The notes below the pieces were generated by a model, which saw only the letters and a list, made by a program, of their open reading frames with translations, was not told where the DNA came from and ran no database searches. From Balanoglossus misakiensis (taxonomy: Eukaryota; Animalia; Hemichordata): a DNA stretch of 64,000 bases. This document shows, one piece after another, positions 21,391 to 60,853 of the stretch. The DNA lies in NCBI GenBank assembly GCA_040954595.2, contig CM082592.2:1798001-1862000 (forward strand), in the 5' to 3' direction. The translations under genes were made by a program, and so were the position numbers. How positions within the stretch are numbered: position 1 is the first letter of the stretch; every line of letters starts with the position of its first letter.

Positions 21391-22330
21391 ATAATAACAT
21401 ATTTGTGGTATAAGATAATATAGCTAAATTGAGCTATGATTTAATTCCATTATAATTTTAAAGAAGAACATATCATTAACTTGCAACTAAAATTTTAAAT
21501 TTATCAGTCATGCACATTCTGATAAAAAGTTAGTTTTTTTATCAACATTCGAAAACATGCCCCAAAAATACAATATTTTCAGCAGACTTTTCATATATAT
21601 CACAGTAAGAATTCCCCTTGAAACTGCAAACAAAGTTGAAAAGCAATCACAGAAAAATGGCAAAATTTGCCAACAAAAAAAATATTGACACTTCCATCAA
21701 AGGGTTTTCTAAATATTCTTGAAAACACACCTAGGAACCTGGAAACCAAATTTCAAAAAAAAATATGGGTAAAGGTTTCCGAGTATTTGGCCAAAAAGGC
21801 AAAAATCGCTCCAAAAATATACTTCAAAAAAATGAAAATAATCTGTATAAGGTCTCAATAAAATACAATGTACACACCAATTTCTAAAGCAATCTGACCA
21901 GCACCTTCTTATGTTTCTGAGTTTTGACCAAGTTCACATGGGTCCCAATGGTATACGAAATGGGACCCAAAGAGTAAAACACTTGTTAAAGATTTTACAA
22001 CTACAGGCTCACAAGATGCCAAATTTTAGAAGTCTTTTTACTTGGTAAAAAAATTCCCACTGAGCCATATTGCTTGTATATGCATGGCTTTGTCATCTCT
22101 TGCCGATGCATACCACAATAGTTGTATACCCTTCATATGGGGGTTGATTAAAACAGCGAGGAACTCGTTTAATATCTAACTTCTTTATATTGCAACATAC
22201 AGCCACATTCATTTGTCCATAACATTTTCATGTATATCTATCAGTTAAGCTTATTTAGATTGAGCAATCTAAGATCGAAAGTTAAATCATGAAAATAATG
22301 AAAGATTGGCAACTTTGAGTTTGAGTCTAA

Positions 22331-24879
22331 TAGTGGAGCGGCCAAACCCCGATTTTCATATGGATTGTGCATTTTGTGATAAAAGCACCAAACTTGGCTC
22401 AGATGTGTGTTACTGTGTACTAAGCAAATTCAGATAGCGAGCCACTTAATATCTGTTAACGGGTAGCCATGGCAACCATTTTTCAAAATGGCCGCCACTA
22501 CATTTATCTTACCCACAAAATAACGACTAAAAACACCAAGGTAATTTCAGAGTATGATATTTGGAACTAGAAACTATAGAAAGGGTGATTTGCAAAATAT
22601 TTGCGGTCACCAAAATGGTTATAAATACATAATGAAGGATAAAATACAGTTTAACGTCTACAGTGGAGCGGCATAACAGATCAATTGTGTATTTGTGTTA
22701 AATTAAAAGCACCAAACTTGGCTCAGATGTGCGTTAATGTGTACTAAACAAATTCAGATAGCGAGCCACAATATCTGTTGATGAGTTTCCATGGCAACCA
22801 TTTCTTCATTTTTTTCACAAATGGCCGTCAATACAGATAATCTCACCCACAAAATAACAATTATAAAACACCACAAAACTGCTCAAAGGGTAATTTTCAA
22901 AATATTAAACATCACTAAACTAGTTATATGGGTAAATACAGGATCGAGATTCAGTCGCTAGAGAAATTCAAGTTTGGTAATAACCGCGGTTACAACAAAC
23001 TTAGTTAAAACACTGTATAACCATAGATATATTATAATAGTGGCCTGGCATAAACAAAATTTTCATAACATTTGTGCATTTTGTGATAAAAGTTTAACAA
23101 GTAAAGCTCAGTTGATTTGTTATTTTCCCCATAAAAATATCTTTGACGAACAAAATTCCAAATTTAGTCAACCCAGGAAAAAACGGCATCTTGTTTCTCA
23201 ACCTTAGAAATTGATCTGACCAGTTTGAGTCAGTGCAGAATCTGGCTTTTCTATTTTATCTTCATCAAATGATTCATGCAAATAAAGAATCACTTCCCCA
23301 TAAAATGATGGCAGAAAGTCAATATCAGGACAGTCGATTGGTTTGTTAAAGTTTCTATAGAAACTAACTATGTCTAGGTTGCATGTACATAGATAGATGT
23401 TAGGAATCAAAATCAAAATCTGTTTCAAACTATGTAAGTGCTTTGTCGCTTAAGTGCTCAAGTTATCGAAAATTTTAATCGAACCTTGATGATAGTCATC
23501 AGTTCTATTTTGACATGTTATTTTGTGTATTTTTGAACCCCAAAATCAAAGAATAAAATGATAAAGTGTAATTAAGCTTCAAAACACAAAAAGTCTTCAG
23601 GATCACAACTTTACTGTAAAGAGTAAGATTTCGCTTACTTCATGCTATTAAATGAAATGAAGTTTTCCGTAATATCTCTTGCAAAGTCGGATCTTTACAC
23701 ATTGAGATATTAGAATGGAAGTACATTCCAAGTGACTTGTTGTGAGCATCGGGCCACCTAATCCCAGAAAATTGCAATAAGACCCGCTTTTCCATTTACC
23801 AATCTAAAGGCCAACTGCTTGTATATTTAGTTGGGTTTCTTTAATTAACACACATTTTTGACAATATTCATGGCATGATGAACACTATTCTCGACAAATA
23901 AAATAATGTTGTGTCCTCCGGTGTAATTTTTATTAGTTTGGAATCAGACACCATTTATCTTTTGGTCAACTCTGTTAACAGTCGCCAAAATTGCTGGAGT
24001 CGAACTGATACATGATCTAAAGTATCAAGACATATGGTCGATTATTAACGTTTCAGCAGTTCGACTTAAGTTTCTTTAATTTCCTATGGCATTTTGACAA
24101 ACATCAATGCCCCGAAAAAAGTTTTCAACGCTGTGGTCGCTATTGTGGTCTAAACAAAGCCGACATTTTCGCATGGTTCGTTACCCGGGGTCCATTTAGA
24201 TTGCATTGCGTTTGAGGCCCTATGTGTATGTCTGTCGACCAATAAACGCGACGGCCGCGGACTCAGTTTGGATCAACGTCTATTTGGGCAGTGGACTCTC
24301 CTATCAAGTTGATAAGGAAATTTTACCAGTCACGAGTAAGCCAAGCCCACATCCGTGTGCAATTCGAATATATCGGTGATCTGTTTATGATTATCATTAG
24401 CTAAGGTGGTAAACTGTTGTGATTCATATGTGTAATTTACGTACTTCAAGTTAAATATCGCAATTAGCCTAATGTTTGACCATAGACAGTATGGTTTGAC
24501 TTCTAGAGGAGCACCTATTAATCCGAGAACAAAGGGATTAAAAGTTGCGCCTTTAAATTGTGTTTTGATAACTTACCTACCCCTATAAGTAGTTTAGTAA
24601 CCATAATATCTTTGCAAATTATTCTTCCCGCAGTTCCTTGTATCAAATACAGTAGTCCACATTTATTTCGGTGTTTACAGATGTTATTTGGTGGGTGAAA
24701 TTATCTGTATTGGCGGCCATTTTGAAAAAAATGGTTGCCATGGAAACTCATCAACAGATATTTAGTGGCTCGCTATCTGAATTTGTTTAGTACACATTAA
24801 CACACATCTGAGCCAAGTTTGGTGCTTTTATCACAAAATGCACAATCCATATGAAAATCGGGGTTTGGCCGCTCCACTA
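22331..24879. mobile_element. Non-autonomous DNA transposon with ~190-bp TIRs and 3-bp TAA TSD (Academ-like); arm 1 only
   Basis: tagtggagcggccaaacccc...ggggtttggccgctccacta flanked by TAA. Arm 2 has the empty site at ~51,660. An extra TIR copy lies at ~22,660-22,850. Family call is tentative. Confidence 0.8.
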
Positions 24880-25136
24880 TAAAGATATAATGATGACATT
24901 AAGGTTTTATTGAAATAACATGAGAACCTCTCTACTATTTGAAGCACTTAAGTTTAAAATGAAACACTTCCTTCTTCCCCTCAAACTTTTTTTCAAGAAT
25001 ATGTTCTACTCTGGGACAACAATTCTCGACCCCTTTACCAAATGTCAGGGACCAGATTTCTGTAAGCAAAATTACAAATGACTTTGCGGTGACTTTTTAC
25101 CTACACTCCCATATTGGGTAGTATGAAACACCGAAT

Positions 25137-34934: not shown

Positions 34935-35365
34935 CAATCCGTGGCACATTTCGGCCAACCAATAAACCGATTTGCAACTTCAAAAAAGGAAATTGAAAAA
35001 AATGCTAAATGTCAATTTTCAAATTGTTTCTTCATCTTGATTATTACATTTTAGGCCTATTTTCAGCCCCCCCCCCTTTCATTAGGATAAAGAGATATTT
35101 GGTAAATTGAAAATTGGGAAAACGGAAATAGTGCATTGTTGGAAATGACGTTCGTCGGAGGGAAATTTGAATGGCCGCAAAGTGCCATCCTCACAGCAGT
35201 ATATACCAATTTCCCATTTGTCAATCTCAGACGAAGAATATGTAGTTAGAAAATAGGCCTAAAATTTAATAATCAAGATGAAGAATTGACATTTAGCATT
35301 TTTTCTATTTCCTTTTTTGAAGTTGCAAATCGGTTTATTGGTTGGCCGAAATGTACCACGGATTG
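34935..35365. mobile_element. MITE with ~120-bp TIRs and 4-bp TSD; mirrored at 41,623-42,055
   Basis: caatccgtgg...ccacggattg flanked by GTTA on both sides. Confidence 0.8.
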
Positions 35366-35384
35366 GTTACAAGCAGTAATTATT

Positions 35385-37557
35385 TAAGCAATAACCCCCG
35401 CCGAAGGCGGGTATACACGAGATTTTGGTACAATTCGCGACATATAGCATGAGCCGATAGGCGAGTGCTATATGGAGCGAATTGTACCAAAATCGAGTGT
35501 ATACCCGACTTCGGCGGGGGTTATTGCTATTATATTATATCAAAATATGTGTCTATACCGTTGTAATCCGATTCTCCGGTTATTTTACGCCTGAAAAAGC
35601 AAGTCACAGCTTCGAGAAATACATCGTCAGAAATATTGGACCTGGGACCGAGCATATTTATACCTGTCACATCGCCAACACACAGCGTACCCGGCACACA
35701 CACTGCATGAATACAACCGTACAAAACACATTACACTGCATTGCATTGACAAATAACTTTATTTACATAGAGTTCAAAACGATAACTTGTCGAAAAATAG
35801 CAACACATGAACAAGAAATGGGGCAAGAGGTCAAATCAAAGCCCGTTATCAAACAAAGTATCAATTTAAAGCTAGAGTCAAGTACGTTGCGTTGCGGCGC
35901 ACCCTCGTCCACCGTACGCTACTTATCGTGAACAATTTGAACATTAACAGGACCAGAAAACGTACAATTTTGAAATAATCCAGAAGCAGCATGACTTGAT
36001 CTATGATTGAACGTTAGTTGCGTGTTGCTCGATTCAGAGAGAGCGGGACGCTGATACTGATCGTCGTTGCATCGGATGTCAGCCGTGGCCAAGGGTGTTG
36101 GAGCTTCAGGTCCGATGTCAACAATGGTGGAAATATTTGGCCTGGTATAACCCAAACTTTCAGAAAGGATATCTGACATACCTTTGCTCTGTGGAAGTGT
36201 TAACTTATTTGTGTACGAACGAACACTAGCTTCATTTTTGTGAGCAGTGAAGTACATTATGTGTCGCGTCTCGACTCCCGCCGAATCAAGCAGAGTGCAA
36301 GCAGTTGCCCTGATACAGTGGTTTGTATACATTTGACTCAAATTTGCTGCTTCGGATATTTCTTTCATCATAGATCCAAGTTTGTTTTCGCCGAGAGGTG
36401 AGTTGCAAAACCATATATTATCTGTGTATTCAATGTCAGACTTTGGTCGGTGGAATAAAGCTGACTGCTTCGGATTGAGCTTAGAGAGATACAGTTCAAA
36501 CGCGGCTACAGGGCAATTTACGCCACCGGTTGCATGCATTTTGGCCTGTGTCTCGTAGTTGTCGTCGGAGTGATTTTTGGTTTTCTCCGATATCGCGAAC
36601 TCTACAAATTTCGTGTCACCACGTTCTACAACTCTGTAGCTTTCCCTCTTCATAGATCGGAAACCTTCGCGACCCCTCCTAGCAAAATGGAGGGTTAAAT
36701 CGAACCAAACTTTCCGCAACAACGACAGTGGGTTGTTGACGGAAAGGACGCCGCTACTCACTAGTTTTAACAAGTCCGCCCGCGTTATAGGTTGTTTGTG
36801 CTGTACCCTATCAAGGCCTTCTGATTTAAGCTGTTTTATAAGTGCCTTGAAGATGTTGTTTGCAGCTTTAAACTCTTGGTCGCGGATTATGTTTATATTC
36901 CGGTGGAAAGCTGGCGAGTTTAAATGCCGGTTGTTCGCTGCACGTAACCCGCTGAGGGCAGATTTGCCGTATCTCTCGCCGTGTTTGGTTCGTGCCTCGG
37001 CATAGAATCGACGTAGCATCGCCGCCAAATCTTCAGGTTGTTGTTTTTCAAATTCCGGGTCTAATCCCTTTTCTGCTAGCCATTCTGCAGAAAAAGATGG
37101 ACATAGAAATAATTATAGTGCAACATCCTTGTAATTTGGGATTTGTTTTAGCTTGGGGTATCGTCTGATATGCATACTCGTACACATAACGTACATAGCC
37201 TACTCACCTTTTAGTATTTTCACTCCCCAAACAGTCTGTTTTGTCGTCGCTTTCTCGTCTTTAAGAATTTCGATTTTGTCAAGCTCTTCCTCTCCAAAAC
37301 TTGCAAACCGGGACGGGATTTTTCTTTCCAATTCGGCAGTCTCATTTAAAAAATCGTCTTCCGTAAGCTCTTCCGTGTACGAAGCCATAGTTGTAGCAGA
37401 CGACAAAAAGTGACATCACTAGTCGCAGGGCATTCGTACTATGCTAGTTCAGGGGCCCGTTTTACCATTGCTAGCCATGGTAAAACAGTATTTTACCATG
37501 GCTGGAGTCAGCTCTCGTCCAATCAGAATCGCGGACGGTAGCATGATATAATATAAT
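35385..37557 (-). mobile_element. Autonomous Crypton-type tyrosine-recombinase element, copy 1
   Basis: YR gene bracketed by a 14-bp IR, attatattatatca (35529-35542) / tgatataatataat (37544-37557), plus a terminal hairpin at 35387-35528. No TSD and no RT. Confidence 0.88.
35919..37388 (-). CDS. Crypton-type tyrosine recombinase (DUF3504-like), 2 exons (37388-37208, 37084-35919), ~448 aa
   Basis: A 123-bp GT-AG intron joins the exons in frame. Catalytic set FARRGRE (R), EKTKN (K), TNHCIRAT (HxxR), HKNEASVRSY (H..Y). N-terminal LRRFYAEAR..G..Y..SAL..LRAA motif of Crypton/KCTD1-ZMYM type. Confidence 0.9.
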
Positions 37558-37670
37558 CGATATCAAATGACGTCAGACGCACTCAGGCCGGTTAGCCTAT
37601 TCAAGATTCATGTTTCAAGTTTCACGTTTCACGTTCCACGGCCCAAGATTCAGCGGTGAACTTGGATTCA

Positions 37671-38207
37671 AAAATAAAGGGCGCGAAACTGCATTTTTAT
37701 TAAACTGAAAAGCAAATTATCTCAATGTTTGGGAGGACCAATTTTATTTTTTGCCACTCCACTCAAAGTTAGAAGATTTGACGTCATCTTTGTCATGACA
37801 TCATTTATAAAACTTCTAGTATATAGAAGATGCAGCGCGAAAGTATAAGTTTTGGGAAATGGTTTAAACGATTATTCTCCTTTATGTATTTACTTTGTTA
37901 AATAATATCATCGGTGGGGTTGGGGTGGCAAGCAATCTGCGCTGGTACACTAGACAAACCAGCAAAAATCGAAATGTGGCGGAGAATGAAGGGGGTGGGT
38001 GTGGGAGGGGGTAAAATAAAGGGCGCGAAACTGCAATTTTGTGGACTCAAAAGTAAAAGTTCGGTGGCAAAAGTATGTGACCCCCCCCCCCTAAACGTTT
38101 AAAAAAACAGATGACCCCCCCTTTTGGACTTCAAAATTTAAGTGACCCCCCCCTCCCCCCTGGATTTTGCCGGGGCCCCCCTGCCGTAAAAACTGAACGG
38201 TCCCTTA
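37671..38207. mobile_element. One-ended MITE-like fragment in the palindrome spacer
   Basis: Ends ...aaaactgaacggtccctta. The body resembles ~17,220-17,525 (aaataaagggc.cgaaactgca, ctggtacactaga, gatgacccc). Confidence 0.5.
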
Positions 38208-38486
38208 GCCTAATAATTCAAGATTCACGTTTCAAGTTTCAAGATTCACGTTTCAAGTTTCACGTTTCACGGCCCAAGATTCAGCAGTGAACTTGGATTC
38301 ACGATTCACTTCTCAATTCCAACACTAAACTCATGTTCTAATTCAGATTCGAGTCTTGTCTAATATGTTTATGCTGCCGTAACCAGGGGTGCGTAGCAAA
38401 ATGTGACACAGTGAATAGCGCCCCCACACAGCAGTGGCTGGTATATGGATTTAGTGGGACGTCGTCGTCGGAGACCCTAGGCTTGA

Positions 38487-39110: not shown

Positions 39111-39425
39111 TATTCACAGATACTTTTAAGCGTAATTCTGATATAATTGATAGGTTTAGGGTCCGGGTATATTTTACAACCGATAACTAAAGCAAAAGGA
39201 CTAATTCCTATATTCTGAATCAAGTGAATGCAATGTAGACGGCGAAAGGACGTGACAAGACTCGAATCTGAATCAGAATATAAGTTTAGTGTTGGAAGTG
39301 AATCGTGAATCCAAGTTCACCGCTGAATCTTGGGCCGTGGAACGTGAAACGTGAATCTTGAAACTTGAAACGTGAATCTTGAATAGGCTAACCGGCCTGA
39401 GCGCGTCTGACGTCATTTGATATCG

Positions 39426-41603
39426 ATTATATTATATCATGCTACCATGCTACCGTACGCGATTCTGATTGGACGAGAGCTGACACCAGCCATGGTAAAA
39501 TACTGTTTTACCATGGCTAGCAATGGTAAAACGGGCCCCTGAACTAGCATAGTACGAATGCCCTGCGACTAGTCATGTCACTTTTTGTCGTCTGCTACAA
39601 CTATGGCTTCGTACACGGAAGAGCTTACGGAAGACGATTTTTTAAATGAGACTGCCGAATTGGAAAGAAAAATCCCGTCCCGGTTTGCAAGTTTTGGAGA
39701 GGAAGAGCTTGACAAAATCGAAATTCTTAAAGACGAGAAAGCGACGACAAAACAGAGAGTTTGGGGAGTGAAAATACTAAAAGGTGAGTAGGCTATGTAC
39801 GTTATGTGTACGAGTATGCATATCAGACGATACCCCAAGCTAAAAAAAATCCCAAATTACAAGGATGTTGCACTATAATTATTTCTATGTCCATCTTTTT
39901 CTGCAGAACGGCTAGCAGAAAAGGGATTAGACCCGGAATTTGAAAAACAACAACCTGAAGATTTGGCGGCGATGCTACGTCGATTCTATGCCGAGGCACG
40001 AACCAAACACGGCGAGAGATACGGCAAATCTGCCCTCAGCGGGTTACGTGCAGCGATCAACCGGCATTTAAACTCGCCAGCTTTCCACCGAAATATAAAC
40101 ATAATCCGTGACCAAGAGTTTAAAGCTGCAAACAACATCTTCAAGGCACTTATAAAACAGCTTAAATCAGAAGGCCTTGATAGGGTACAGCACAAACAAC
40201 CTATAACGCGGGCGGACTTGTTAAAACTAGTGAGTAGCGGCGTCCTTTCCGTCAACAACCCACTGTCGTTGTTGCGGAAAGTTTGGTTCGATTTAACCCT
40301 CCATTTTGCTAGGAGGGGTCGCGAAGGTTTCCGATCTATGAAGAGGGAAAGCTACAGAGTTGTAGAACGTGGTGACACGAAATTTGTAGAGTTCTCGATA
40401 TCGGAGAAAACCAAAAATCACTCCGACGACAACTACGAGACACAGGCCAAAATGCATGCAACCGGTGGCGTAAATTGCCCTGTAGCCGCGTTTGAACTGT
40501 ATCTCTCTAAGCTCAATCCGAAGCAGTCAGCTTTATTCCACCGACCAAAGTCTGACATTGAATACACAGATAATATATGGTTTTGCAACTCACCTCTCGG
40601 CGAAAACAAACTTGGATCTATGATGAAAGAAATATCCGAAGCAGCAAATTTGAGTCAAATGTATACAAACCACTGTATCAGGGCAACTTGCACTCTGCTT
40701 GATTCGGCGGGAGTCGAGACGCGACACATAATGTACTTCACTGCTCACAAAAATGAAGCTAGTGTTCGTTCGTACACAAATAAGTTAACACTTCCACAGA
40801 GCAAAGGTATGTCAGATATCCTTTCTGAAAGTTTGGGTTATACCAGGCCAAATATTTCCACCATTGTTGACATCGGACCTGAAGCTCCAACACCCTTTGC
40901 CACGGCTGACATCCGATGCAACGACGATCAGTATCAGCGTCCCGCTCTCTCTGAATCGAGCAACACGCAACTAACGTTCAATCATAGATCAAGTCATGCT
41001 GCTTCTGGATTATTTCAAAATTGTACGTTTTCTGGTCCTGTTAATGTTCAAATTGTTCACGATAAGTAGCGTACGGTGGACGAGGGTGCGCCGCAACGCA
41101 ACGTACTTGACTCTAGCTTTAAATTGATACTTTGTTTGATAACGGGCTTTGATTTGACCTCTTGCCCCATTTCTTGTTCATGTGTTGCTATTTTTCGACA
41201 AGTTATCGTTTTGAACTCTATGTAAATAAAGTTATTTGTCAATGCAATGCAGTGTAATGTGTTTTGTACGGTTGTATTCATGCAGTGTGTGTGCCGGGTA
41301 CGCTGTGTGTTGGCGATGTGACAGGTATAAATATGCTCGGTCCCAGGTCCAATATTTCTGACGATGTATTTCTCGAAGCTGTGACTTGCTTTTTCAGGCG
41401 TAAAATAACCGGAGAATCGGATTACAACGGTATAGACACATATTTTGATATAATATAATAGCAATAACCCCCGCCGAAGTCGGGTATACACTCGATTTTG
41501 GTACAATTCGCTCCATATAGCACTCGCCTATCGGCTCATGCTATATGTCGCGAATTGTACCAAAATCTCGTGTATACCCGCCTTCGGCGGGGGTTATTGC
41601 TTA
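39426..41603 (+). mobile_element. Autonomous Crypton-type tyrosine-recombinase element, copy 2
   Basis: Mirror of 35385-37557; terminal hairpin at 41460-41601. Confidence 0.88.
39603..41069 (+). CDS. Crypton-type tyrosine recombinase, 2 exons (39603-39783, 39907-41069), ~447 aa
   Basis: Intron 39784-39906 (gtgagt..ctgcag), same catalytic motifs as copy 1. Differs by a few substitutions and a one-codon deletion (RATAC to RATC). Confidence 0.9.
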
Positions 41604-44600
41604 AATAATTACTGCTTGTAACCAATCCGTGGTACATTTCGGCCAACCAATAAACCGATTTGCAACTTCAAAAAAGGAAATAGAAAAAATGCTAAATGTC
41701 AATTCTTCATCTTGATTATTAAATTTTAGGCCTATTTTCTAACTACATATTCTTCGTCTGAGATTGACAAATGGGAAATTGGTATATACTGCTGTGAGGA
41801 TGGCACTTTGCGGCCATTCAAATTTCCCTCCGACGAACGTCATTTCCAACAATGCACTATTTCCGTTTTCCCAATTTTCAATTTACCAAATATCTCTTTA
41901 TCCTAATGAAAGGGGGGGGGGGGCTGAAAATAGGCCTAAAATGTAATAATCAAGATGAAGAAACAATTTGAAAATTGACATTTAGCATTTTTTTCAATTT
42001 CCTTTTTTGAAGTTGCAAATCGGTTTATTGGTTGGCCGAAATGTGCCACGGATTGTAACCCTACCCATTTGCGGAAAGTAATCCCCAAAACAGAATACTT
42101 CGCCTGTCAAAACGCACGAAAGAAATTATTTTACAAAATCACAGAATGGCAATTGCGATTTGAGTGAAATTGCGATTTGAGTTGACTGAAATGTTGTTGA
42201 CTCTCACGAAATGCTGATTTGAGTCGAGTGAAATTTCGATTTGAGTTGAGTGAAATGGCGATTTGAATTTTGGCCCCATTTGAGCGCCATAATTGTACGC
42301 CTATCCCAGTTTTGGCTTATGCAAGCGACGTCCGGTGCTGCACGCATATCATCGTTCGACAACTTAGTTTGACCGGTTATTTAACGATTTGAACACTTGA
42401 CAGACGTAATTTGTATCAAAACCTTACAACTGCCCTGATTAGTTGATAAAAGTTGCGGCTGGCCGGCCGACTTCTTCCTCAAAATAAATATACGTTATGA
42501 ACGAGGATATATGGGCAAAGGTCAGTGTGACGTCATGAGGTTTGATTCTAGAACTCACGCGATGGATTTTGCTTGGTCGATGTACGTACAGCTACAAAAA
42601 TTTCAAAGGTGGGTAATTTTTAACAATATTGTGACCGTGTGTACGAGGTATTAAGAATAGTTGGCAAGTGCCTCTCAGAAAACTGGTCTTTTAAATATTG
42701 TCTTCGCAAAAAAACGACAACATTTATCAACAACATTTACTCCGCACGCGGTTTGACTTTGAAACAGACCCGGGCGGGAGGCGTTCACGATGTTTAATGT
42801 GTGTAATCGCGATCCTGTAATGGTTTTTGACTGTAGAAATATCCACAGACGCCGGCATCAATGTTGCGAAAACAGAGTTATGACTACAGTAAATAATGGA
42901 AATATGTACCTTCGTGCGTTTGAAGACGGAATTAGAAATAATCGGAATAATATTTAATTTCTCATGTGAACTCTTCACCCGGCCGGGGCTGATGCGACTT
43001 TGTAAAAAAAATGTGTTGGTCATTGTTGATTCTGTCATTATTCTAATGTATTTATTTTGAATTAACTTGTGTTCATCCAGGTAATCGTATGGATTTGTAT
43101 GGAATTACTTACACAATAATTCAAGACAGTTATATCCCAGAAGTCGAACCTCCATGTGTGTATTCAGTGAAAGGAACTTACAACATTATGTGATATGATT
43201 TGTGTATGTGCTTGGGATTCAATCATGCTGTGGAGATGGCCTGCAAACTTGGGTTGCATGGCGTTTCAGTGAGTATTATTTATGCTTTATGAAGTTTTGC
43301 CGTATAATTTGTGAGTCATTTCAAGTATTTGATGATCAAATTTTACAGTTACTCTGAGGTAACCATTTAAAACATGAATTCTACCAAATGAATGAATGTG
43401 CTTAGAATTCACAACTGTGAGAGAGTTTGCATAAGAAATTTTTCAGATGCATTTTTCTGATGGCAATGCATTTAACTGTAAACAAATATTGACGTCCATT
43501 CTTAGCGCTATTGTGTCAGTGAAATGGCTTCATCATTATTCCTCCAACCAAAGTTGAAACACAGCTTGAAATTATAAAATGTTGCAAAATTGAGCCAACA
43601 GTTCGGTCAACAATCACGTTCTTACAGCTATTATTAGAACCAGACTGTATGGGGGAACAAGAGACATGGGCCTGATTTGCAAGCCGAGTTGGAAATGATT
43701 TTGCCTGCCCACGGACCTACCAATTTCAGTGAATCTTATTGTATTTAAATATGAATATGGAGAACTATCCTCTGTATTCTGATTGTTAGCCTGCATACAT
43801 CATTAATGTACCTTGAGTGATTCTGGTTTCTTCCGTATCCTGTAAATGAGAATTTAGTCACCAAAACAGGCGCTTCTCGGATTCAGATACCAAAACCCGC
43901 ACTTCTCACAATTCAAAGACCTAATCAACTGGGCAACCAGGTCTGTCAAATTAATCTGATGCCTCTTACCGGCTGAAGGACCACCAGTTGCATTTTCACA
44001 TCGCATATAAACAAAAACCCAATTAAATTATGCAGTATAATTTTATTGACAATTCAAAAGTTTCATGACTGTTAGTGTTAATTACAATACCTAAATTTCC
44101 AAATATGAGAATGCAGTCCTTCAGCTCCAACTATTTCCTTAACTGCACCCTTTACCCACCAGTTACAGTCATCACGGGCCTCAACTTTACCACCTACCGA
44201 AAACTTGTAGTTTGCAATGTCCTGTTGTGTTCGCGAAACTGCCAATAAGATGTTAATTACAATCTTTCCTTCCAAGTCACCTACCCAATTATTTCAAAGG
44301 TGGTTATCAAGATGGCCAGAACAGCCAATTTTAACCAACCAGCTTCAAGAACCTGAGAAAAGGTGCTAAAAGCATGCAATAGATATATTGACGAGATAAA
44401 CATTGGGAACAATAGGATTATTTAAGGGAGGTGTGACTGGTCCAACCTGCTCAGTTTTAGTGTGGGGCACGGCTGGAATGACTGCAAAGACCTAATTGAC
44501 CGGGCAACTGGGTCTGTCGAATTAATCTGATGCCTCTTACTGGTCGAAGGATCACCAGTTGCATTTTCACATTGCATATAAATAGAAACCCAATTAAATT

Positions 44601-47600
44601 ATGCTGTATGATTTTATTGACAATTCTAAAGTTTCATGACTGTTAGTGTTAATTACAATACCTAAATTTCCAAATATAAGAATGCTGTCAGTTTTCATGT
44701 GATTGATATTAATTTTACATTTTCAAAATTTGCTTCTCTGAATGATTATCATCAAACTCCTGTTATATCAAATGTCTTGATACAACATTTGATTGCCCCA
44801 TTTTTTGCTCATGCTTTCTAACCAGTCAGTTGCTTCTGTTTGGATGGATGGTTTGATGTCCGTCCACATCAAAAACTTGAAAACCACTTCGCGTATCCAG
44901 GCCTCGAGCTTAAAGGCACGTAAGCTGCAACTGGATAAAAAATTAAAGTTTTAAATAATCTCATATATGCTTTTAATTATGTCTATTAAATGATATTTCA
45001 TGATAATATATCAATTTTTGAAGCTCAACTCTTTTTTATGACAAAATGGCCAAAAATTAAAGAAAAACGAAAATTCCTGCAATTTTAAAAAAAGTGCAAT
45101 ATTGCAATGAAAAATGAAAATCTGATGTCTCAGTGGTGTACATTTACTTCCATGAGCTCAAGTGGATGAGATCATGTTTTGTTTATGAAGTTACACAACC
45201 GGAAATGCAACATTTTCATTGTTTCTTGCATTTTCCCACGGTGGCGGCCATAATCGCTTGCGGCAAAGCTTTATTATTTATCTGGTTAAAACTTGCATAT
45301 GCACTCATATTTAGGGTTTATAATGCTCGTGTATAGTTCACTGCCTTCATCTGTATGGACTAATGGTAGTGCAATTTGAAACAAAAATTATGAAAATTAT
45401 CCCAAAAGTTACAGCTTACGTGCCTTTAAAGGTATACGGTCACCTATGGAAATTTAGCTACAGTTACCATTTGTAAACTTGAGATCTAGCCAATCGCTGA
45501 TTTTCACTGGATGGCACACGCGAAAAAAAGAGCGCCATCATATGTTCTTTGGAACGCTCAAATACGCCATTTCAGCCAAATATGGGCGTATGTAAATGGG
45601 AGGTGACTGTATACCTTTAATGCCGGCCCACCGGTTCTATGAGCGATGTTTGCAATGGCTTGTTTGTGCCCCTCAGATAACGCATGGCTCGATAAAACTC
45701 CTTTTCATGTTGGTACACCAAGTTACGAAAGGACCTGCTGCATATTTTGTGTACTTATCAAGAATTCCAGACTGTCGCTTGTTAACAACCAGCGGACGTA
45801 CACACTACACACTGCAAGACTGGCAGAACATTTTGGAGATGTGTTCATCACGCTTACCGGGATCGTGTATTAGCCATGGAAAATCTTTTTCCCAAGCCTC
45901 TTGAAACTTCCTTTCCCATTTCTGTGCATCGAAGACTTTGTTTGCAGCACAGCGATCTTCTGTTGATCGCTTCTTTTTCGCTGCTGGTGCCTCAATATTT
46001 AAATATATGTACATGTTTGACTCACGCATAAAGCCCATCAAAACAAGGAATCCATTTTGAATAAACGAGATCTCGAATCTACCACCAATGCATAACATAT
46101 GGGGATGTAGACTAGCGCCACCACTCTCGCAAGTCGCCAGAGATGCTTAGCTTTAATGGCTTTCGCCAAGTTGATTTTGCTGATCGATCTGTTCAGTTTT
46201 CATTTTATCTAAATTTTGGGCTTTGATTATTTGAGAATTTAGCAGTATAGGGTCAGAAACTTAAAAATTGCCACCCCCCCTCTCTATTAACAGCAGGACA
46301 TTGGGTCTGCTTCTTTATCAAATTAAGTGGGAAAGGAAAGACAATGACACTGTCAGGAGTCTACTACCTCCATGATGAACCAGAGAGCAATGACTATTTT
46401 AATTTATTTCAAATACTATGTTTACAACTGCTGTGCTCCCATTAACTGGGGAAAGTATATGATTGAACTGTCTGTTTGAATAATTCATGTATTTCGCTAT
46501 GTGACCCGGATTTTGTGATTTTCTGATAGATTGATACAAAGACAGTTCTTTGCTTACTGATAATTTATTGAAAGTGCTGCTCTTCCAATGACTGTCCAGT
46601 ACGTATTTGCATAATGTGAACCTTGACCAGGTGTACAGGGCCCTCATGAAGCAAAGAGATACAACCCTTCTCTTTGCTAAACTTGGCTGCTATGAGTAGG
46701 TTTGTAACTTTTTGTTAAAAGTGTTCAATCGTTGACATCCACTTCTATTATTGAGATGAAATGATGTATTAGTGTCTCAAGAACAGTCAACTGTAATAAT
46801 TTGGAAGAATGTTTCATGTTTTTGTGAGTTTTTCAAGCTTTTATTCAGAGTTGATGAAAGTACAAATACAATGAACAGTTGCATGTGTTACAGTGTACTG
46901 CCATGGTCAAACAATACTTGGACATTCAGTTATTGTTATCGCCTGTTGGAAATATGTGGATATTGGACTCCAACAGTATTTCATGTGCTGTAGTATTTTC
47001 TGCTATGTATGCTTTGTACATATTTTTTGGTTTTGTGAATTAGTATTTTAATGCTCATTTCTCCCTTTGCTAACTTGGCACCTACAATACTATAGTCAGT
47101 ACATAACAGGATATACTTCAAAAGGGAAAACTTTTCATCAAAACATTTCAGCTGATCCTGAATGCTGATATTTGTTTTAAAAATGAATTTATCTCATAAC
47201 TTCTACTGGTGCACCATTTTTTTTCTTTTAAAATGCATCTCTCATACATTGCACTGGTGTGATTTGATATAAATACACAATGAATTCCATCACCATTTAA
47301 TATAGCAGTATAACACAGGATACTAAATCTGAGATGTTTTAGGATGTTTTGAACTAATCAGTAACCATTTTCTAAAACTTATAGATCTGAAACTGAAATT
47401 CTGAATTTGGTCAGCCCTGGGAAATATATTGTGTGAGGCCATTTTTAATTCCAAAAATTAAAACGGTTTAATATTAGAGCCCTTGGTAGAAGGTTACATA
47501 GTACCACACATGTAAATGACGTTCTGCACTGAAAAAAAAGTGAACTTGGCATGGGTAGGTAAAAAAAATGGGCAAAAAAAAGTTTGAGGCCTAGTATCAC

Positions 47601-50600
47601 CTGAATATTTGGTGGGTAGGTGCAGGCCGGTCTGTATACGGTTCAAATGAAGTTACCTGGTAAAATGTTAAATTGATCAAAATTCAGAAACTCAACAACT
47701 GGTCAGATTACTTTAAACATTTGTATGCATGTAGCTTATGTCATGCCCGATATACTTTGAGCTAATATCGTGAATTGTGGCAACTTTTCATTTGGGGGCA
47801 ATTTTTGCCATTTTATGGGATCGGTTGCGTCTGTATGTATGGGTGGATGGATGTATGTCTGTATGTCCGTCCACATCAAAAACTTGAAAACCGCTGCGTG
47901 TATCACATTGATATTTGATGTGCAGATGCAGGCTGGGCTGTAGATGGGAGTTTGATCAAATCAAGTTGTCATTGCCGAAAATATGCTAATTAGCTGGAAA
48001 CATGAATTGGTCAAAACTCAGTAACTAAAGAACTACTGGTCAGATTGCTTTGCAAAGTGGTGTGTATTTACTTGATTGAGTTGTTTTAATTAGGCAGGAA
48101 GCCCCCTCAGTGTGATTTATGTATACACAGCAAATTCCTGAATGATTACAAAACTGGGTAAGTTTATAAAGAGGCCAGCTGTTCTATTTAGTGTATGTAT
48201 GTAGTACATATGCCATTGGCAGCTCTTTGGTCAGTCAGTGCTTGCCCATTGATCTCTCGTTATATGTGTGTGTGTGTGTGTCTGTCTGTCTGTATTTGGC
48301 CATGTACTCCGGTGTAGACTTTTTCTTGTGTAATACCTCAATGGGACCACTGTGTCCTTGACACGATTTTTGGCCAAAAATCATTTTCTCTGAGACTCCT
48401 TGCTAGATTGCTTTTAAAGTTTGGTATTCTTGTTCCAAGTGGTAAAGTGGTAACCCTCGTAATGTTGCATCATTTTGGTGAAATTTGTACATTTGTGGTC
48501 TTGAGGCAATTTTTGGAATTTATATTCTGTGAAACCTCTTGTCAGATTGCTTCCAACTTTGGTTGGCATGTTCCTGGTGGTGATTGAAGTAAGATATTGT
48601 ACAATTTGTTGATATTGAATTTTTGTGGTTTGAGGCAGTTTTTGTCATTGTTGAACACATATTATTTTTGCTGAAAATACTTGTCAGATTCCTTTGAAAT
48701 TTTATTACAGTAGGTCATATCTGCTTGCCAATGTCAGTTGTGATTTTTTTTTCGTGTACACAACTAATTTTGTGTAATCCCCAGATGGGTCCACAGTGTG
48801 TTATAACCTGACCAATATTTACTGGTAAATCCTGTATGTTCTACTTCTGGCAACTTTGAAATATGTTGATGTTTGGGTTAAATGGGATTCTTCACAAACA
48901 TACAATACAGAGTGTGTGGTACAGTCCATGGTCACATTCAGAACTACCTAGTCTATATCTGTATGATTTGCTTCCAAAACTAACACCTAGAGTCATGCAT
49001 ACCATTGGCCAAATAAACTGGAACCCCTAGCTGGGAATAGTGATGTAAGTAGTGTCCCTTTGAAGTCAATCGCATAAACTGAACAGTGTTGATTAAAGTG
49101 TAAGATAAAAAAAATAGATTATAGTGAAGGCAAGGCTTATATCATTGAAAATGCTACAAGCCTTAAGGTGGCATTGCATGAAACCGTCGAGACTTTTTCA
49201 GAGGCCTATTTCTCATCAAAGACAACGTTAAAACCCCCATAAACCATATATATTCTGGAAGCCGAGTTTTTGAACTTTTGTTTGCATTGCAAATATTATT
49301 GATCCCTGGAAATGGTGGCGATTTTGGGTTAAAAAAACCCATTTTTTGATATTATGTCATAAAATTTAAAATAGGTAAAAAAGTTGACCATGCATCATGC
49401 ATCTTTATATGTCATTCGAAACTTGAGTACACGTGCAAAACAACGGTAATTTTGTTTTGCGTTATCTGCTTCCATTGAGGAGTAACAGCGTTTGAAAGTT
49501 AGATTTTTAGTAAAATTTGATCAAATTCACGGTGAGTTGTATTGAATCAGAGTTTATTCCCGCCAGAGACAATTTATCGACTAACAAAAATACCGTTTTG
49601 TTGGCTGGGTCATACACAATCCCCAGTTAAAATTTGAGCAAATTCGGCCAAGGCAGAGCGAAGCTATTTTCGTCTGAAGTTGTCAAGAACAGCGAAAATG
49701 CAAACTGAGAAAAACGGCCATTTGCATTGTTGACACCTATTTGTTAAGCTGTGAACTCATTCAGAAAAGTGCTATTTTGGGGTGATTATGCACCATTTCC
49801 GCCAAGACGTATTAGTCAGGATGTGGGTCAGTATTAGGCATACCGATTTATGTAAAAAAGTAAAATTTGGCAAAAATCACAACTATTCATGCAATGCCAC
49901 CTTAATTACACATATGTATATATCCTTTGTGTAATCCATACCGTACCATAGACTTGCATAGTACTTTGATGGTGAATCACAAATGGCCACTTTCATTACA
50001 CTACCTCAATCAGTCAATTAGCTGTAATAAGACAAACATTCCCAGTGTAATTTACATCACTGTTGTTATTAGTATCTATCGCCAATCAGTATCAATTATG
50101 CCTTTATGTTATTTTAAGTCAATTGTCAAGGTTCATGTACATATCTTACAACTTAACTATCTTGTCAAAAACTTCCGCATGTATATGTACAATGTACCTA
50201 ATTCTAGGCTCACCAGTAGGGTTAGAGATAAAGTGTTTTATATTAACATGCATTAATATGAAACTAGAATTTGATGGTTAATTTAGGACTCCCTTGATCT
50301 ATGGTGACCTCATAAATATGTGCATATCTAATTCTAGGCTATCCATTGGAGGTAGAAACCTGGACATGGCAAACTTTGGGGTCAAAATCTTTTGACAAAC
50401 TCCTGGGTAATCTTGGGTAAACTTTGCCCTACATTCCTATATTTTGGGATCCGGAGCAGATACATCCGTGACACTTGGACTGATGGAAATATGTAATGGA
50501 CTATTATGTCTTACTTCATTAATTTTGTGCACTCATGCCAGGCTAACCAAAATGGCTGAAAGTCTGGCTTTTGTTTGACATAATGAATTTGAGATCAGCA

Positions 50601-53600
50601 TTTTCCTACAGCAGCCATGCTTCACTTAGAAAAGAATGGAAAATATAAAGGCTTAAATGGTAGGCTGAACTTTTTACTTCCCTTCCCTGAGACTGTGTGC
50701 CAATGACGGGATAGCCTACTCAGCGTTGGGTAGATCCTAAGAAGGCCTCAGCCAGGTTTCAAATAAAAAGAAAGCGGAAATAGCTTGAATGGTGGGTTAC
50801 ATCGTTAACTTCCCTGCAGAGCTGATTTCTCAGACTGTGAGCCAATGACGGGTAAAGCCTCTAGGTAGGGGCCACCTAAGACAGGCCAGTCATGCTTTAA
50901 TTACAAAGAAGGGCAAGTTCAGTCTTACCACAACTTTGTCTGCTGTATATGCTTCATAAAGAATGCATAGTATTTTGAGAACACATTGTGTGACCATGTA
51001 AAAAGTACTGGCAAACATAGCCATAGTGGTATGAAAAAACATCTAATGTGGCTTAATAAAAGACATATAAAACACAGCAAAAGCACTGTGACTAAAAGAG
51101 ACATAATACTCCATTACATAGTTGCATCACTCCAAATGTCAAGGATGTATCAGCTTTGGATGCCAAGATATAGGAATGTATGTCAAAGTTTACCCAGATC
51201 ACCCAAAATTTTGTCATCAAATTTGGACCCCAAAATTGTCCCCGTTTAGGGATCTACCTCAACTGGATAGCTTAGAATTATATATGCACATATTTAATGA
51301 TGTTACCATAGATCAAGGCAGTCCTAAATTAACCATCAAATTCTAGTTTCATGTTAATTCATGTTAATATGAAACACTGTATCTCTAACCCTTCTGGTAA
51401 GCCATTCGGTGTTTCATACTACCCAATATGGGAGTGTAGGTAAAAAGTCACCGCAAAGTCATTTGTAATTTTGCTTACAGAAATCTGGTCCCTGACATTT
51501 GGTAAAGGGGTCGAGAATTGTTGTCCCAGAGTAGAACATATTCTTGAAAAAAAGTTTGAGGGGAAGAAGGAAGTGTTTCATTTTAAACTTAAGTGCTTCA
51601 AATAGTAGAGAGGTTCTCATGTTATTTCAATAAAACCTTAATGTCATCATTATATCTTTAGACTCAAACTCAAAGTTGCCAATCTTTCATTATTTTCATG
51701 ATTTAACTTTCGATCTTAGATTGCTCAATCTAAATAAGCTTAACTGATAGATATACATGAACATGTTATGGACAAATGAATGTGGCTGTATGTTGCAATA
51801 TAAAGAAGTTAGATATTAAACGAGTTCCTCGCTGTTTTAATCAACCCCCATATGAAGGGTATACAACTATTGTGGTATGCATCGGCAAGAGATGACAAAG
51901 CCATGCATATACAAGCAATATGGCTCAGTGGGAATTTTTTTACCAAGAAAAAAAGACTTCTAAAATTTGGCATCTTGTGAGCCTGTAGTTGTAAAATCTT
52001 TAAAAAGTGTTTTACTCTTTGGGTCCCATTTCGTATACCATTGGGACCCATGTGAAATTGTTCAAAACTCAGAAACATAAGAAGGTGCTGGTCAGATTGC
52101 TTTAGAAATTGGTGTGTACATTGTATTTTATTGAGACCTTATACAGATTATTTTCATTTTTTGAAGTATATTTTTGGAGCGATTTTTGCCTTTTTGGCCA
52201 AATACTCGGAAACCTTTACCCGTATTTTTTTTTTAATTTGGTTTCCAGGTTCCTAGGTGTGTTTTCAAGAATATTTAGAAAACCCTTTGATGGAAGTGTC
52301 GATATTCTTTTTTGTTGGCAAATTTTGCCATTTTTCTGTGATTGCTTTTCAACTTTGTTTGCAGTTTCAAGGGGAATTCTTACTGTGATATATATGAAAA
52401 GTCTGCTGAAAATATTGTATTTTTGGGGCACGTTTTCGAAATTGAATGTTGATAAAAAAACTAACATTTTATCAGAATGTGCATGACTGATAAATTTAAA
52501 ATTTTAGTTGTAAGTTAATGATATGTTCTTCTTTAAAATTATAATGGAATTAAATCATAGCTCAATTTAGCTATATTATCTTATACCACAAATATGTTAT
52601 TATGGGTTAGGTTAGGTTCTGGGCAGGTACTGAACGCAGTCTTGTGAGCCTCTATATTCAGCTCCACTTCAGTCCATCCTTGGAGTAGTTTTGTCGGATC
52701 TGGTTTGCATGACGTAGGGTTCGGAGTAGTTGTATTTCATGGGCTGTTTTGCCAAAATTTTGTCAAGACGATTCTTGAAAGAGTTCACAGAGTTTGCGGT
52801 GACAACATGGTCTGGTAGATTGTTCCAAATTGCAGCTATCCTATTTGTGAAAAAAAAAAATCTTCTAGTGTTCATTTTGCAGTGTCCTATGTCAACTTTA
52901 AACGGATGACCTCTGGTGTGTTTGTGTGAACTGAGACTGAATAGTCCTTCTCATACACGGCAGTCATATACACCACTCAAGATTTTAAAAGTTTCAATGA
53001 GGTCACCACGTAGTCTTCAATATGTCAGAGATGGCAGATCAAGTAACTTGAGACGTTCTTCATAAGAAAGATTTTTGAGTCCAGGCAGTAGTTTGGTTGC
53101 TCTGCGTGAACGTTCTCAATACAGTCACAAGTCAATGTCCTATGCTTTATGTTACACACAACCGCCATATTCCAGAATAGGGCGAACTAAAGCTATAAAT
53201 AGTAGCTTGAAAATGTCGTTATTGAGATAGTTGAAAGTTCTCCTGATGAGTCCAACAATTTTATTGGCTATGTTCACTTGGGTTTGGATGCGCTTCTCAA
53301 AATTTGACGCCAATGTTTTTTTCATACTTGACAACTTCTAAAGTGGTATTTGTTCCATGTGGACGGCACATAGTGGAAAGGAGTAGTATTTGTTGACTTA
53401 TTTTTGCTGTGAATTGGTAAACTTTGCACTTGTCAGGGTGAAATTTGAGCAGCCAATCGTTGCTCCATTGGGATAGATGATTTAGGTCACTCTGGAGAAA
53501 TAACCCTTACATTGTTCTTTGCAATTAAGTAGGAACCCCCCACTGAAAATTGTATGTACACGTTGACTTCTCTATGTCTGTATACATGTCTATGTGTATG

Positions 53601-56600
53601 TTTTAAAATGTTATGTTCCTGATAGAATTGAAATGATTTTCTCGTAATTCTTCTAAATGGATTATCTCCTATGAGATATGCAGGCTTATTAGGGGCCCTC
53701 AGGCGCTTGGGCCCCTTCTGTTATTGCTGGAGTTTTTCTTCTTTTTCGGCCGTACTTTTCTCTGAAACCGTTGCCTCTGTGCCAATGAAAATTTTAATGT
53801 AAGCCATCATGTGCTAATGTGGCAGCCATGGCCCACTTTCATCATGAATTGAAATTCACACGTGCTTTACCATCCTCACAAACTGTGTTGAACTGGCACA
53901 CTGCAAATTTTGAAAATATGATATTGATCACAATCACACGCACACTGACAGCATGCTTTTTGAAGATACAGGTACTGACATTATCAGTCATAATACTTTT
54001 GAATCCTCAATAAAGAATAGAAGAATTTAACAGGATTTATATTTGAACGCAAAGTATAAAATTCCCTTGTGCCGTAGAAATCTGCATTTTGTGGTCCTTC
54101 TGCTGGTGAGAAGCATCGGATAAATTCAGCATGCTCATCGCCCAGGAAATTTAGGTGTACAGAAAAAAAAAACTAGAACGACAACAGCTATGCATGCAGC
54201 TATGCAGGCTAACAATACAAACACAGAGAACAGTTCTCCATATTCATTTTTAATACGATAAGATTCACTGAAATTGGCGGGTCCGTTGGCAGGCAAAGTC
54301 ACTTCCAACTCGGAATGCAAATCAGGTCCATGTCTCTTGTTCCCTGAGACAGTCTGGTTCTAATAATAGCTGTAAGAACTTGATCGTTGTCCGAACTTTT
54401 GGTTCAATTTTGCAACATTTTATGATTTCAAGCAGTGCATATTTAACTCTGTTTCAACTTTGGTTGGAGGGATAATGATGAAGCCATTTCACTGACAAAA
54501 TAGCGCTATTAATGGACGACAATATTTGTTTACAGTCAAATTAATTATTGTTCATGTTTATCTCGGATAAAAAATAGTCCATAGCAGGTAAAAAAGTTAG
54601 AAAAAAATACTACAAGTTAAAATATTCTTTGACATCAAACGTTCTATAATAAAATATTTGAAAAAAATAGACTTGGACAGTACAGAAGACACGATCAAAG
54701 TACTAGAAAGTTGAAACTTGCTTATTAAACTATATGACTTTTTCCTAAGTATCTCATCAAAAGTTAAAACATGTAGATTATCAAGCAATAAAGTATTACT
54801 TTGAACATGACTATATTTGAAACCTGTTAATTTACGAAATATCGGAGAATTTGCTAGCGGTATAAAACATTTTCATAGAAAAATTACACCACAAATAAGA
54901 ACTGAACAGAATATTACAAAAAAAACAGAAAATAAATGACACTTGGCGATAAAGATGCAAATTTAAAATCCCGAATGACAGCGTTAATATCTTTAAGGCT
55001 ACAAGATATTAAAGATATTAAAATGACCAAGATATTTGTGAACATTAACATAACTTAGTAGTCTACCATTTCAATAAATTGGAACTATTTTAAGTTACCC
55101 AACACCAGGTTGAATTAGCATAAACACTGTCTTTTTTTCTTATTGAAAAACCACAGCAATTAACTAACACTTGGTGACAATAGCCTCCAGTGAAGAAAAT
55201 AACTGTATCGTCAGCGTAAATGAATTGGTTCACCTTGTAATCGCCATGAAGTCATCCGAACAGAAGGTTTGACAAATTCCTACTGAGATCATCTAAGTAC
55301 ACTTTGAAAGAAATCGTAGATGAAATTCCGTCCTGTTTAAACATCTTTTTTGGACTGGAATGGTGCAGTATAGAGCCGTTCCATTTAACAACAAAATCTT
55401 GAAATGTATACAAATATAACAAAATTGTATTAAGTAAGGCTTAACCCCACTTGTCATCAATTTCTGAAAAAGAACATAGTGATGAACATAGTCGAACACT
55501 TTTGAGGTGTTCATTAAAGTAACAAAAACATGCATGTTATGATGTTTATAATAAGTCAGAATTTTCTTCAATACAAAAAAATGGCCATATCAGTGCCATG
55601 TTCTGGTTAAAAATGATATGGCCATTTTTTTGTATTGAAGAAAATTCTGATTCGTAGAAGAGAGACAATCCATTAAGTTTAGAAGCCGTTGTTGCAAATG
55701 CATTGCCATCAGAAAAATACACTTTTTTGTATAACTGCAAGATCTGTCACAGCTGTGAAATTCTAAGGAAATTCATTCTGACATTCATTGTGTAAAATGT
55801 GTGTTTTATGGATTCTTAACCAAACTTAGTCATGAACCTAAATGGTTACCTCAGCAAAACTAAGGCAAGCCAAGTGTTGCAAAATTCAATAAAACATTTT
55901 TGTGTTCATGAAAAACATTTTTGTGTTCATGAAATCTATGTTTGAGTTCATAAAAATCATTTTTGTCTCAACAAATACATTTTTGTGTTCATGAAAACCA
56001 TGTTTATGTTGATACACTTTTTCAACACTAGATGGCGCTCTGCAATATTTAAAGCATACTCTTTTTCAACACTAGATGGCGCTCTGCAATATTTAAAGCA
56101 TACACTTTTCGACACTAGATGGCGCTCTGTAATATTTCAAGCAGACGATGCTGAGTGGGATTCGTCTTCGGATTCAGATACAGTTTTATCGTTTGCAAAA
56201 TGTCACACATTTCATTTAGAGGTTGATCAATTGCATTCGTCTTTAATCAGTAAACATTCGTATTTAAGCCAAAACTGAGAGTTGTCCGAAAATGGATGCA
56301 GCATTTGACTTAAAATTCAGGATCGTTTATAGCGGCTAGAGTAAAAATGCTCAGGTATAGAAATTGTTGTCATGGGGAGTTGTTGGGCTACATAAGTGCA
56401 GCAAGGTGGGTTACTGTGCCAAACCACTCTACTTTAAGCCAATTTCCTGGTGCAATTGATATATTATTTATACAAGCCTGTGCTTATTTTGACATCCAAA
56501 AGGGTGGGGGTCATCTTTTTTTCGAAAGGTTTAGGGGGGGTTATATGATTTGCCCCCCCCCCCCCCCAACGCTTTGTTTTTTTGTTTTTTTTTGTCTTTT

Positions 56601-60489: not shown

Positions 60490-60853
60490 AGAACTGTTTC
60501 TGAGCGTCCAGTATTTTTTCGGTGCCAGAAACACAATGGCCATCATTAATCTGTACACTTTTCATTTCTTTCTTGACAGCATTCGATTTTTCCAAACCTA
60601 AAAAATATTTCGTACTTCGCTCTCCTTTTTCAACCCACAATGCCCTCGACCGAATTTGAGCTCCCTCGGCGCTTAATTTATAAAGGTCTTCCAGGCGATT
60701 TTTGATATTCCCATAAATCTCAATATTTGCATCTGTGGGGTCATCGATCATATTCTGCTCTGCAATGCTTAACTGATTTTTCAATTCTGGCATAATGGTC
60801 TTACTGTCTCTTGTGGCATTTTGTGCGTAACGCATGGTGTACCCTTTGATATT
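60490..60853 (-). CDS. L1/Tx1 ORF2 part 2 (EN-RT linker)
   Basis: NIKGYTMRYA..GAQIRSRALWVEKGERSTKYFLGLEK, a typical Tx1 linker motif. Confidence 0.9.

Follow-up and report, generated by a model that had tools for sequence, protein, structure and literature searches.

Element A of the hemichordate Balanoglossus misakiensis is a Crypton-type DNA transposon with a DUF3504 tyrosine recombinase as its one gene. It belongs to a known transposon group, has an end structure that was not found in print, and carries sequence features pointing to a single-strand mechanism of movement. A hairpin lies close to its 3′ terminus and is directly preceded by a short copy complementary to its 5′ terminus. The same layout recurs in three further elements (B, C and D) of the 64,000-nucleotide stretch analysed here, called the window, and this end structure of A–D is a real, non-random feature. 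In the preferred reading, drawn by analogy with integron cassettes and given a probability of about 55%, the hairpin and the internal complement would together form a recombinase target on one folded single strand. The observations likely agree better with such a model than with templating as in DIRS or with the double-stranded circle that is usually assumed. The window is repeat-rich eukaryotic DNA, and the results concern this one window.

A one-gene transposon in a repeat-rich window

Element A covers 2178 bp (39427–41604, plus strand), as delimited by loose ends of contigs, and is similar in size to the published CryptonA elements (2073–2289 bp; PMC3212892). Exon 1 of the recombinase gene (39603–39783, plus) is placed by alignment with the start of the best homolog (P0001). 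It is followed by a GT–AG intron of 123 nt with in-frame stops (39784–39906, plus), matching a 41-residue gap against the same homolog, and by exon 2 (39907–41069, plus), assigned to DUF3504 and the tyrosine recombinases by Pfam, catalytic residues and predicted fold. The Pfam matches are PF12012 (DUF3504, E 3.9e-13) and PF00589 (Phage_integrase, E 4.2e-6). All six catalytic residues (R118, K151, H237, R240, H262 and Y271, numbered on the 368-aa query) are present and are conserved in 53–57 of 57 aligned proteins. Of 87 relatives obtained in a protein search, those that are named belong to marine invertebrates and fish; the best named homolog, from Ptychodera flava, shows 70% identity over 66% of the query. 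The predicted structure (pLDDT 83) compares best with XerA (Z 16.6, rmsd 2.7, 174 aligned) and Cre (Z 16.2, rmsd 4.4, 260 aligned), followed by the Crypton-derived QRICH1 (Z 14.7) and the integron integrase 2a3v (Z 12.3, rmsd 3.4, 163 aligned). The modelled fold thus appears nearer to XerA and Cre than to the integron integrase, with no single-strand specialisation visible in the protein.

A first-pass annotation of this DNA had stated that the element encodes no reverse transcriptase (RT). This is correct: open reading frames and a Pfam scan reveal no RT, RNase H, Gag or DDE transposase in A, and the tyrosine-recombinase gene, missing from that annotation, is present. By Pfam, a Rep-helicase is also absent from A, the recombinase being its one encoded protein, and a second long frame (41057–41527, minus) has no match. 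The sole RT in the Pfam scan of the window belongs to a LINE interrupted by B and C. The two termini of A are not complementary to each other, and neither terminal inverted repeats nor long direct repeats occur.

With a single DUF3504 recombinase gene, a length of about 2.2 kb, no terminal inverted repeats and many short non-autonomous derivatives, A resembles CryptonA; the hairpin, the internal complement, the 2-nt surplus described below and the strand bias set the ends of A–D apart from it. Animal Cryptons are described without terminal repeats in Kojima and Jurka 2011, as far as its account goes (PMC3212892), and direct repeats or microhomology of 4–6 bp at the ends are ascribed to fungal and oomycete members, not to animal ones, in the passages concerned. 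In a 2026 CryptonA paper on the Glomhoppers, the terminal repeats of fungal members are said to be poorly conserved, and neither ‘hairpin’ nor ‘circular’ occurs in the parts of that text drawn on here (PMC13465315). The human Eulor5/6 repeats have termini in common with salmon Cryptons (PMC5753468). No description of an end layout like that of A–D was found in the Crypton literature searched, a search of papers rather than of Repbase.

Element A lies in an inverted duplication of ∼39 kb (about 17.4–56.6 kb; arms 17425–37660 and 39330–56575, 97–99% alike, spacer 1.7 kb), which is either a real rearrangement or an assembly fold-back. Its inner edges fall ∼100 bp from the 5′ ends of both copies of A. 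The mirror copy in the left arm (35384–37557, minus) has the same flanks as A; it is the same insertion, mirrored, and provides no independent evidence. The codon directly after the HxxR motif (40686) is missing in the plus copy and present in the mirror copy and in contigs, and the mirror copy is one unit short in an 8-bp tandem repeat near the 5′ end (39438–39445). A separate repeat with 7-bp units occupies 39280–39426, and also 37557–37660 and 38200–38330; the insertion point of A is where contigs of this repeat diverge. Elsewhere, MITE-like or longer elements with terminal inverted repeats lie at 34997–35304, 41684–41993, 10588–13836 and 22330–24880, the one at 10.6–13.8 kb having element D inside. 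Tandem arrays are found at 5800–6908 (146-bp units, 7.6 copies) and 62576–63732 (239-bp units, 4.8 copies), and a piggyBac-type DDE transposase fragment (PF13843, E 7.9e-12) with a PHD-finger fragment at 7556–8005 and 14803–15273. Rfam gave 0 matches within the window.

Hairpin, internal complement and two surplus bases

The 5′ terminus of A (39427–39439, plus) is complementary to an internal copy at 41446–41459 (plus). This copy is the exact 14-nt reverse complement of 39426–39439, in which base 39426 also pairs and is probably a flank base. Directly after it comes a 142-nt hairpin (41460–41601, minus) with three GA/GA two-by-two loops and a folding energy of −68 kcal/mol (z −16.1), as good as which none of 200 shuffles folded. 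Between the hairpin and the predicted crossover lies the 3′ tail (41602–41604, plus), of which two bases are surplus and one is paired. The first-pass annotation had seen in the internal repeat a near-complement of the predicted circle junction, common to A and to elements at 60.85, 59 and 12.5 kb (B, C and D). Both observations hold, and ‘nearly’ means exactly two surplus junction bases. Self-alignment also reveals a small internal hairpin near the 5′ end of A (39488–39518, plus); together with one in C (59107–59160), it lies 60–90 bp inside the 5′ end. The first 60 nt of A, B, C and D contain CCAAT-, CRE- or E-box-like motifs.

The contigs used for the boundaries of A come from three runs of one sample, possibly the source of the window itself, and are not independent support. 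Among the loose ends listed, 18 of 250, at least 19 contigs of the left-flank repeat depart from the window sequence after 39426, and hairpin contigs depart after 41604 (13) or 41607 (17 and 16). The boundaries are taken as 39427–41604, with the exits at 41607 presumably reflecting an AT-rich target preference. In run X1, contig depth, which is not a copy number, reaches 25,001–61,571 at the ends of A versus 129–293 in most interior bins, about a 100-fold difference. Since contig joints skip the interior of A, short derivatives with both ends exist.

An unbiased self-alignment of the window yielded 12 hairpins, five of them with GA/GA loops (A, its mirror copy, B, C and D), and all five have an upstream complement of the bases preceding the hairpin. 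Element B (60853–61166, minus; 314 bp) is a non-coding relative of A, with a hairpin at 60856–60998 and an internal complement at 60999–61021 (both minus) that is complementary at 22 of 23 nt. The ends of A and B are 76% alike over 164 nt and hence related, so that the four elements represent three independent sequence types. Element C (59016–60489, plus; 1474 bp) has end sequences unlike those of A, an internal complement at about 60368–60380 (11 nt exact from the boundary) and a hairpin at 60381–60485 (both plus). Element D (12459–12898, plus; about 440 bp, boundaries by analogy only) is non-coding and represents a third end type, with an internal complement at about 12685–12705 (20 of 21 nt) and a hairpin at 12706–12896 (both plus). 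A further hairpin at 55556–55650 (95 nt), at the break between the palindrome arms, has neither GA/GA loop nor internal complement and was left out.

Within C, a decayed tyrosine-recombinase remnant (59585–59881, minus) is recognised by a profile match (E 6.6e-10, 27.1 bits; at most 0.4 bits for 50 shuffles and a reversed control) and a TNHSLRAT motif. Its sequence type differs from that of A, and its direction relative to the hairpin is opposite to that of the gene of A; as a single remnant, it could be an inverted or captured piece. A recombinase-like stretch on the plus strand of C (E 5e-4, one of five homologs realigned; profile −0.2 bits) was dismissed as chance; if it were real, the remnant would have been inverted internally. 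A profile search of D gave no credible recombinase remnant, and D is therefore a putative member.

B and C split the same nearly full-length LINE ORF2 (56710–62049, minus; endonuclease, RT, zinc finger), with 360 bp between them, and their empty sites are thereby known. At C, the F/Y-Y-x-x-L spacing found in 11 of 11 LINE homologs fixes the length of the element; a 3-bp target duplication was discarded because the LINE motif would become one residue longer than in these 11 homologs. At B, the length is fixed by the LINE frame and the spacing W-x3-K-x2-I/V-K/R. The element start and the right flank are alike at two or three of four bases in A, B and D, not in C. The target sites deduced are A^A or T^A.

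All four alignments agree that the predicted junction of the two ends is longer than the internal complement by exactly 2 nt, located at the hairpin foot (TA in A and B, TT in C and CA in D). The LINE frames fix this surplus in B and C, and the contig ends are consistent with it in A; in D it is assumed, and D, with a boundary set by analogy, is not an independent test of the rule. The crossover base of B can be shifted by a few positions with the surplus unchanged.

Chance matches were considered in several ways. Scores at least as high as those observed occur at 16 (A), 6 (B), 7 (C) and 6 (D) of 127,952 window positions. With the exception of 17548, rejected as an AT-rich chance match, the high-scoring positions listed (10 of the 16 for A) all belong to ends or internal copies of the elements themselves. 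A control with the hairpin-arm motif gave 134 oriented matches at 119 viral loci, the longest exact match being 9 nt versus 14 in A. For C, the location-free score is not distinctive (31 of 300 random positions reached at least 12), a value probably inflated by the giant palindrome and the repeats of the window; the case for C is carried by the position of its match, exactly at the break in the LINE reading frame. Inspection by eye found no symmetric recombinase arms around the crossover that were consistent across families. Protein searches gave no related locus among 42 metagenome-contig and 49 viral-contig candidates. In DNA-pattern scans, 2 viral, 15 metagenome and 5 prokaryote loci came up, and all 22 lacked both a long hairpin and a recombinase. 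These searches thus recovered no relative with its flanking DNA in other species, and the evidence comes from one window.

The surplus bases bear on the logic of the DIRS internal complementary region (ICR), through which the first-pass annotation had interpreted the layout. In DIRS elements the ICR is an exact template restoring ends lost from RNA (PMC7192593, PMC3266345), and in DIRS-1 it is an exact 88-bp template, required after reverse transcription (PMC7192593). This logic is not supported for A, where a template is lacking for two junction bases, the gene retains its intron and there is no inverted terminal repeat to restore the 5′ end. DIRS1-like elements and A share an internal region complementary to both joined ends, a tyrosine recombinase and the absence of target duplication. 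They differ in that A has no RT, RNase H or Gag, retains its intron and has none of the inverted terminal repeats, 66–316 bp long in DIRS (PMC3266345); in addition, an exact ICR of 85–130 bp contrasts with 11–23 nt on the 5′ side here, 2 nt shorter than the junction. A DIRS-like finish without RT is closest to the idea of the first-pass annotation. In it, a linear single strand would be freed, aligned by both ends on the internal copy as on a splint, sealed or repaired by the host, made double-stranded and integrated by the recombinase. The geometry indeed puts both ends together, and in DIRS-1, where the ICR is required once the first strand has been made, antisense DNA builds up in single-stranded form (PMC7192593). 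We nevertheless hold such a course to be quite improbable, given that the surplus bases, 0–2 nt from the joint, could not be copied from the splint, that DIRS ICRs are described as exact complements of 85–130 bp (PMC7192593, PMC3266345) and that, the recombinase aside, no encoded enzyme is able to release the strand.

The end layout also evokes elements moved by HUH enzymes. Helentrons with their HINE derivatives, DINE-1 (PMC4067079) and IS200/IS605 (PMC13565253) have a subterminal repeat, a terminal hairpin, single-strand handling and no target duplication. A subterminal inverted repeat with a 3′ stem-loop and no target modification is the HINE/DINE-1 signature, and the match of 11–23 nt seen here compares with the 12–15 bp given for the subterminal inverted repeat (PMC4067079). 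It could be supposed that A–D have Helentron- or HINE-type ends moved in trans by a HUH Rep-helicase, enzymes that act on single strands, the recombinase being cargo. This seems very improbable. The known systems use HUH enzymes, short hairpins and TT or tetranucleotide targets (PMC4067079; PMC13565253), with HINE palindromes of 5–10 bp at 8–35 bp from the end and TT targets (PMC4067079). The hairpins here are 105–191 nt long, lie 2–4 nt from the terminus and have the targets inferred above; moreover, two different recombinase sequences lie between such ends, and A has no Rep-helicase.

Strand bias of the hairpins

Two-by-two internal loops number 11 (A 3, B 3, C 3, D 2), and in every one the element strand reads TC/TC and the opposite strand GA/GA. 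Among 35 arm mismatches, 25 are A·G on the GA strand and none on the opposite strand; G·T wobbles number 5 on the GA strand versus 1 on the opposite strand, and 4 mismatches are neutral. With the internal copy of B included, the G·T count becomes 6 versus 1 (P = 0.125, not significant). When A and B are counted once, eight of eight loops lie on one strand (P = 0.008 for strand alone, with independence weakened by shared descent). An origin of the loops by CpG decay or random mutation was rejected by reasoning, each loop needing two transversions, all on one strand. Tandem GA mismatches stack strongly in DNA, in the sheared form (PMC8163305).

The GA strand folds better in three of the four elements as DNA and in all four as RNA; B, which has one G·T on the opposite strand, folds equally well on both strands as DNA. 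The terminal loops on the GA strand are GATA, GATA, GCA and ACA, closed by C–G. DNA loops of the GNA and GNNA types have an unusual stability, a pattern to which the terminal loop of D does not conform. In the variants of the A family, which are unphased, two double changes keep pairing (41477/41584 and 41499/41562) and one change restores it (41538). Among the variants listed, two (41476 and 41550) break pairs, unless their partners lie among 33 further rows.

Antisense to the gene in A and sense to the remnant in C, the GA strand is the one whose 5′ end bears the hairpin. The bias tracks the polarity of the hairpin and not the direction of the gene, an observation with one remnant, that of C, behind it. 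This observation is the chief reason to seek the cause in DNA and not in RNA. It bears on a scenario in which a transcript would be copied in trans by a DIRS or LINE RT, the folded species being cDNA or antisense RNA. The better folding of the favoured strand as RNA agrees with this, as do the ability of the DIRS-1 RT to act in trans (PMC7192593) and the antisense character of the favoured strand of A, like that of DIRS-1 cDNA. Against it stand the retained intron, the absence of a repeat able to restore the region upstream of the gene and the remnant of C, whose sense strand is the favoured one; furthermore, no intronless joint of A is seen among 12 contig joints listed, which is not evidence of absence. 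We consider RNA-mediated movement the least probable of the alternatives weighed.

The bias also bears on the published Crypton model of a double-stranded circle (PMC3212892; PMC13565253). Applied to A–D, the internal copy would be a second, inverted recombinase-binding site and the hairpin a cruciform or protein scaffold. The predicted fold of the A recombinase, of ordinary Cre/Xer type, suits this model, and so does the conserved 2-bp difference, which would inactivate the twin site: the spacer, 2 bp shorter, would prevent the internal copy from recombining. Still, the model leaves unexplained the stems of 50–90 bp, the GA/GA loops confined to one strand and the pairing kept by unrelated sequences, and a gain of copies is not obvious for cut-and-paste via a circle. 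We regard it as unlikely, though deserving of some weight, and the same holds for the inactivating role of the shorter spacer.

A folded single strand as the proposed recombinase target

From the observed gene, ends, pairing, surplus of two bases (in B and C) and strand bias, the following course may be inferred for the preferred reading, a folded strand as the target. The strand whose 5′ end bears the hairpin (minus in A) would become single-stranded through replication or cruciform extrusion and would fold, its internal copy capturing the far end of the element, so that both ends join at the hairpin base. Exchange of that one strand by the recombinase would release a putative single-stranded circle. 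In this circle, the junction would be a continuous stem with a 2-nt bulge 0–2 nt from the crossover. The junction stem would then recombine with a short AT-rich target, with no target duplication, and replication would resolve the product. As the element would stay on one donor strand, its copies would multiply, and this would account for the abundance of short end-only derivatives.

The first-pass annotation had likewise envisaged a single-stranded intermediate, folded so that the crossover falls within the stem. The strand-biased GA/GA and G·T mismatches, the 2-nt surplus and the covarying ends favour this idea indirectly; the circle junction itself does not appear, as no joint of the 3′ end to the 5′ end of A is found among the 12 contig joints listed, a weak negative given that contigs drop rare forms. 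For DIRS-1, junction PCR failed, possibly through self-pairing (PMC7192593).

The closest parallel is the integron attC site, where a long imperfect hairpin carries at its base an inverse core, with which a short core at one unit end pairs (PMC5027507). Its recombined strand has more G·T pairs and unpaired purines (PMC5027507), as the favoured strand is marked here, and the two systems share a tyrosine recombinase and unpaired bases near the crossover. The elements of the window differ in being eukaryotic, in forming a unit with its own recombinase and in having a paired core of 11–23 nt versus 7. The predicted bulge is on the crossover arm, the extrahelical bases of attC being on the opposite arm, and the modelled A recombinase does not appear especially close to IntI. 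The likeness is a claim about how the elements work, not about membership.

The attP site of the CTX phage also acts through folding. With it, and with the SE elements of Vibrio, the proposed course has in common that a tyrosine recombinase exchanges one strand and replication completes the reaction (PMC9345347); CTX integration is linked to replication (PMC9345347). These systems are bacterial, CTX uses the host XerCD, and the SE elements have several core genes, with no such hairpin described in the relevant parts of that source (PMC9345347).

The way in which Cryptons move has never been demonstrated. The literature, including a 2026 review in its treatment of the mechanism (PMC13565253), assumes a double-stranded circle and offers no terminal structure for animal members. 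In the window there is a 2.2-kb element whose recombinase gene is open, whose ends are defined and for which a crossover is predicted, together with three sequence rules from A–D (pairing, the bulge of two bases and strand bias), each testable by mutation. If the folded-strand reading is true, it would explain the high copy number of an element that encodes a recombinase only, and would allow many hairpin repeats that are still unclassified to be classified by a structural signature. It would also extend single-strand recombination of the integron type to animals and bear on the origin of the DIRS ICR. Tentatively, and at slightly less than even odds, it is tempting to propose that animal Cryptons are self-mobilising elements resembling integron cassettes, and the first eukaryotic tyrosine-recombinase system to act on a folded single strand, in which a 2-nt bulge lies at the crossover and sheared G·A pairs determine the choice of strand. 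The DIRS ICR, instead of originating as an RT template, may then descend from such a site.
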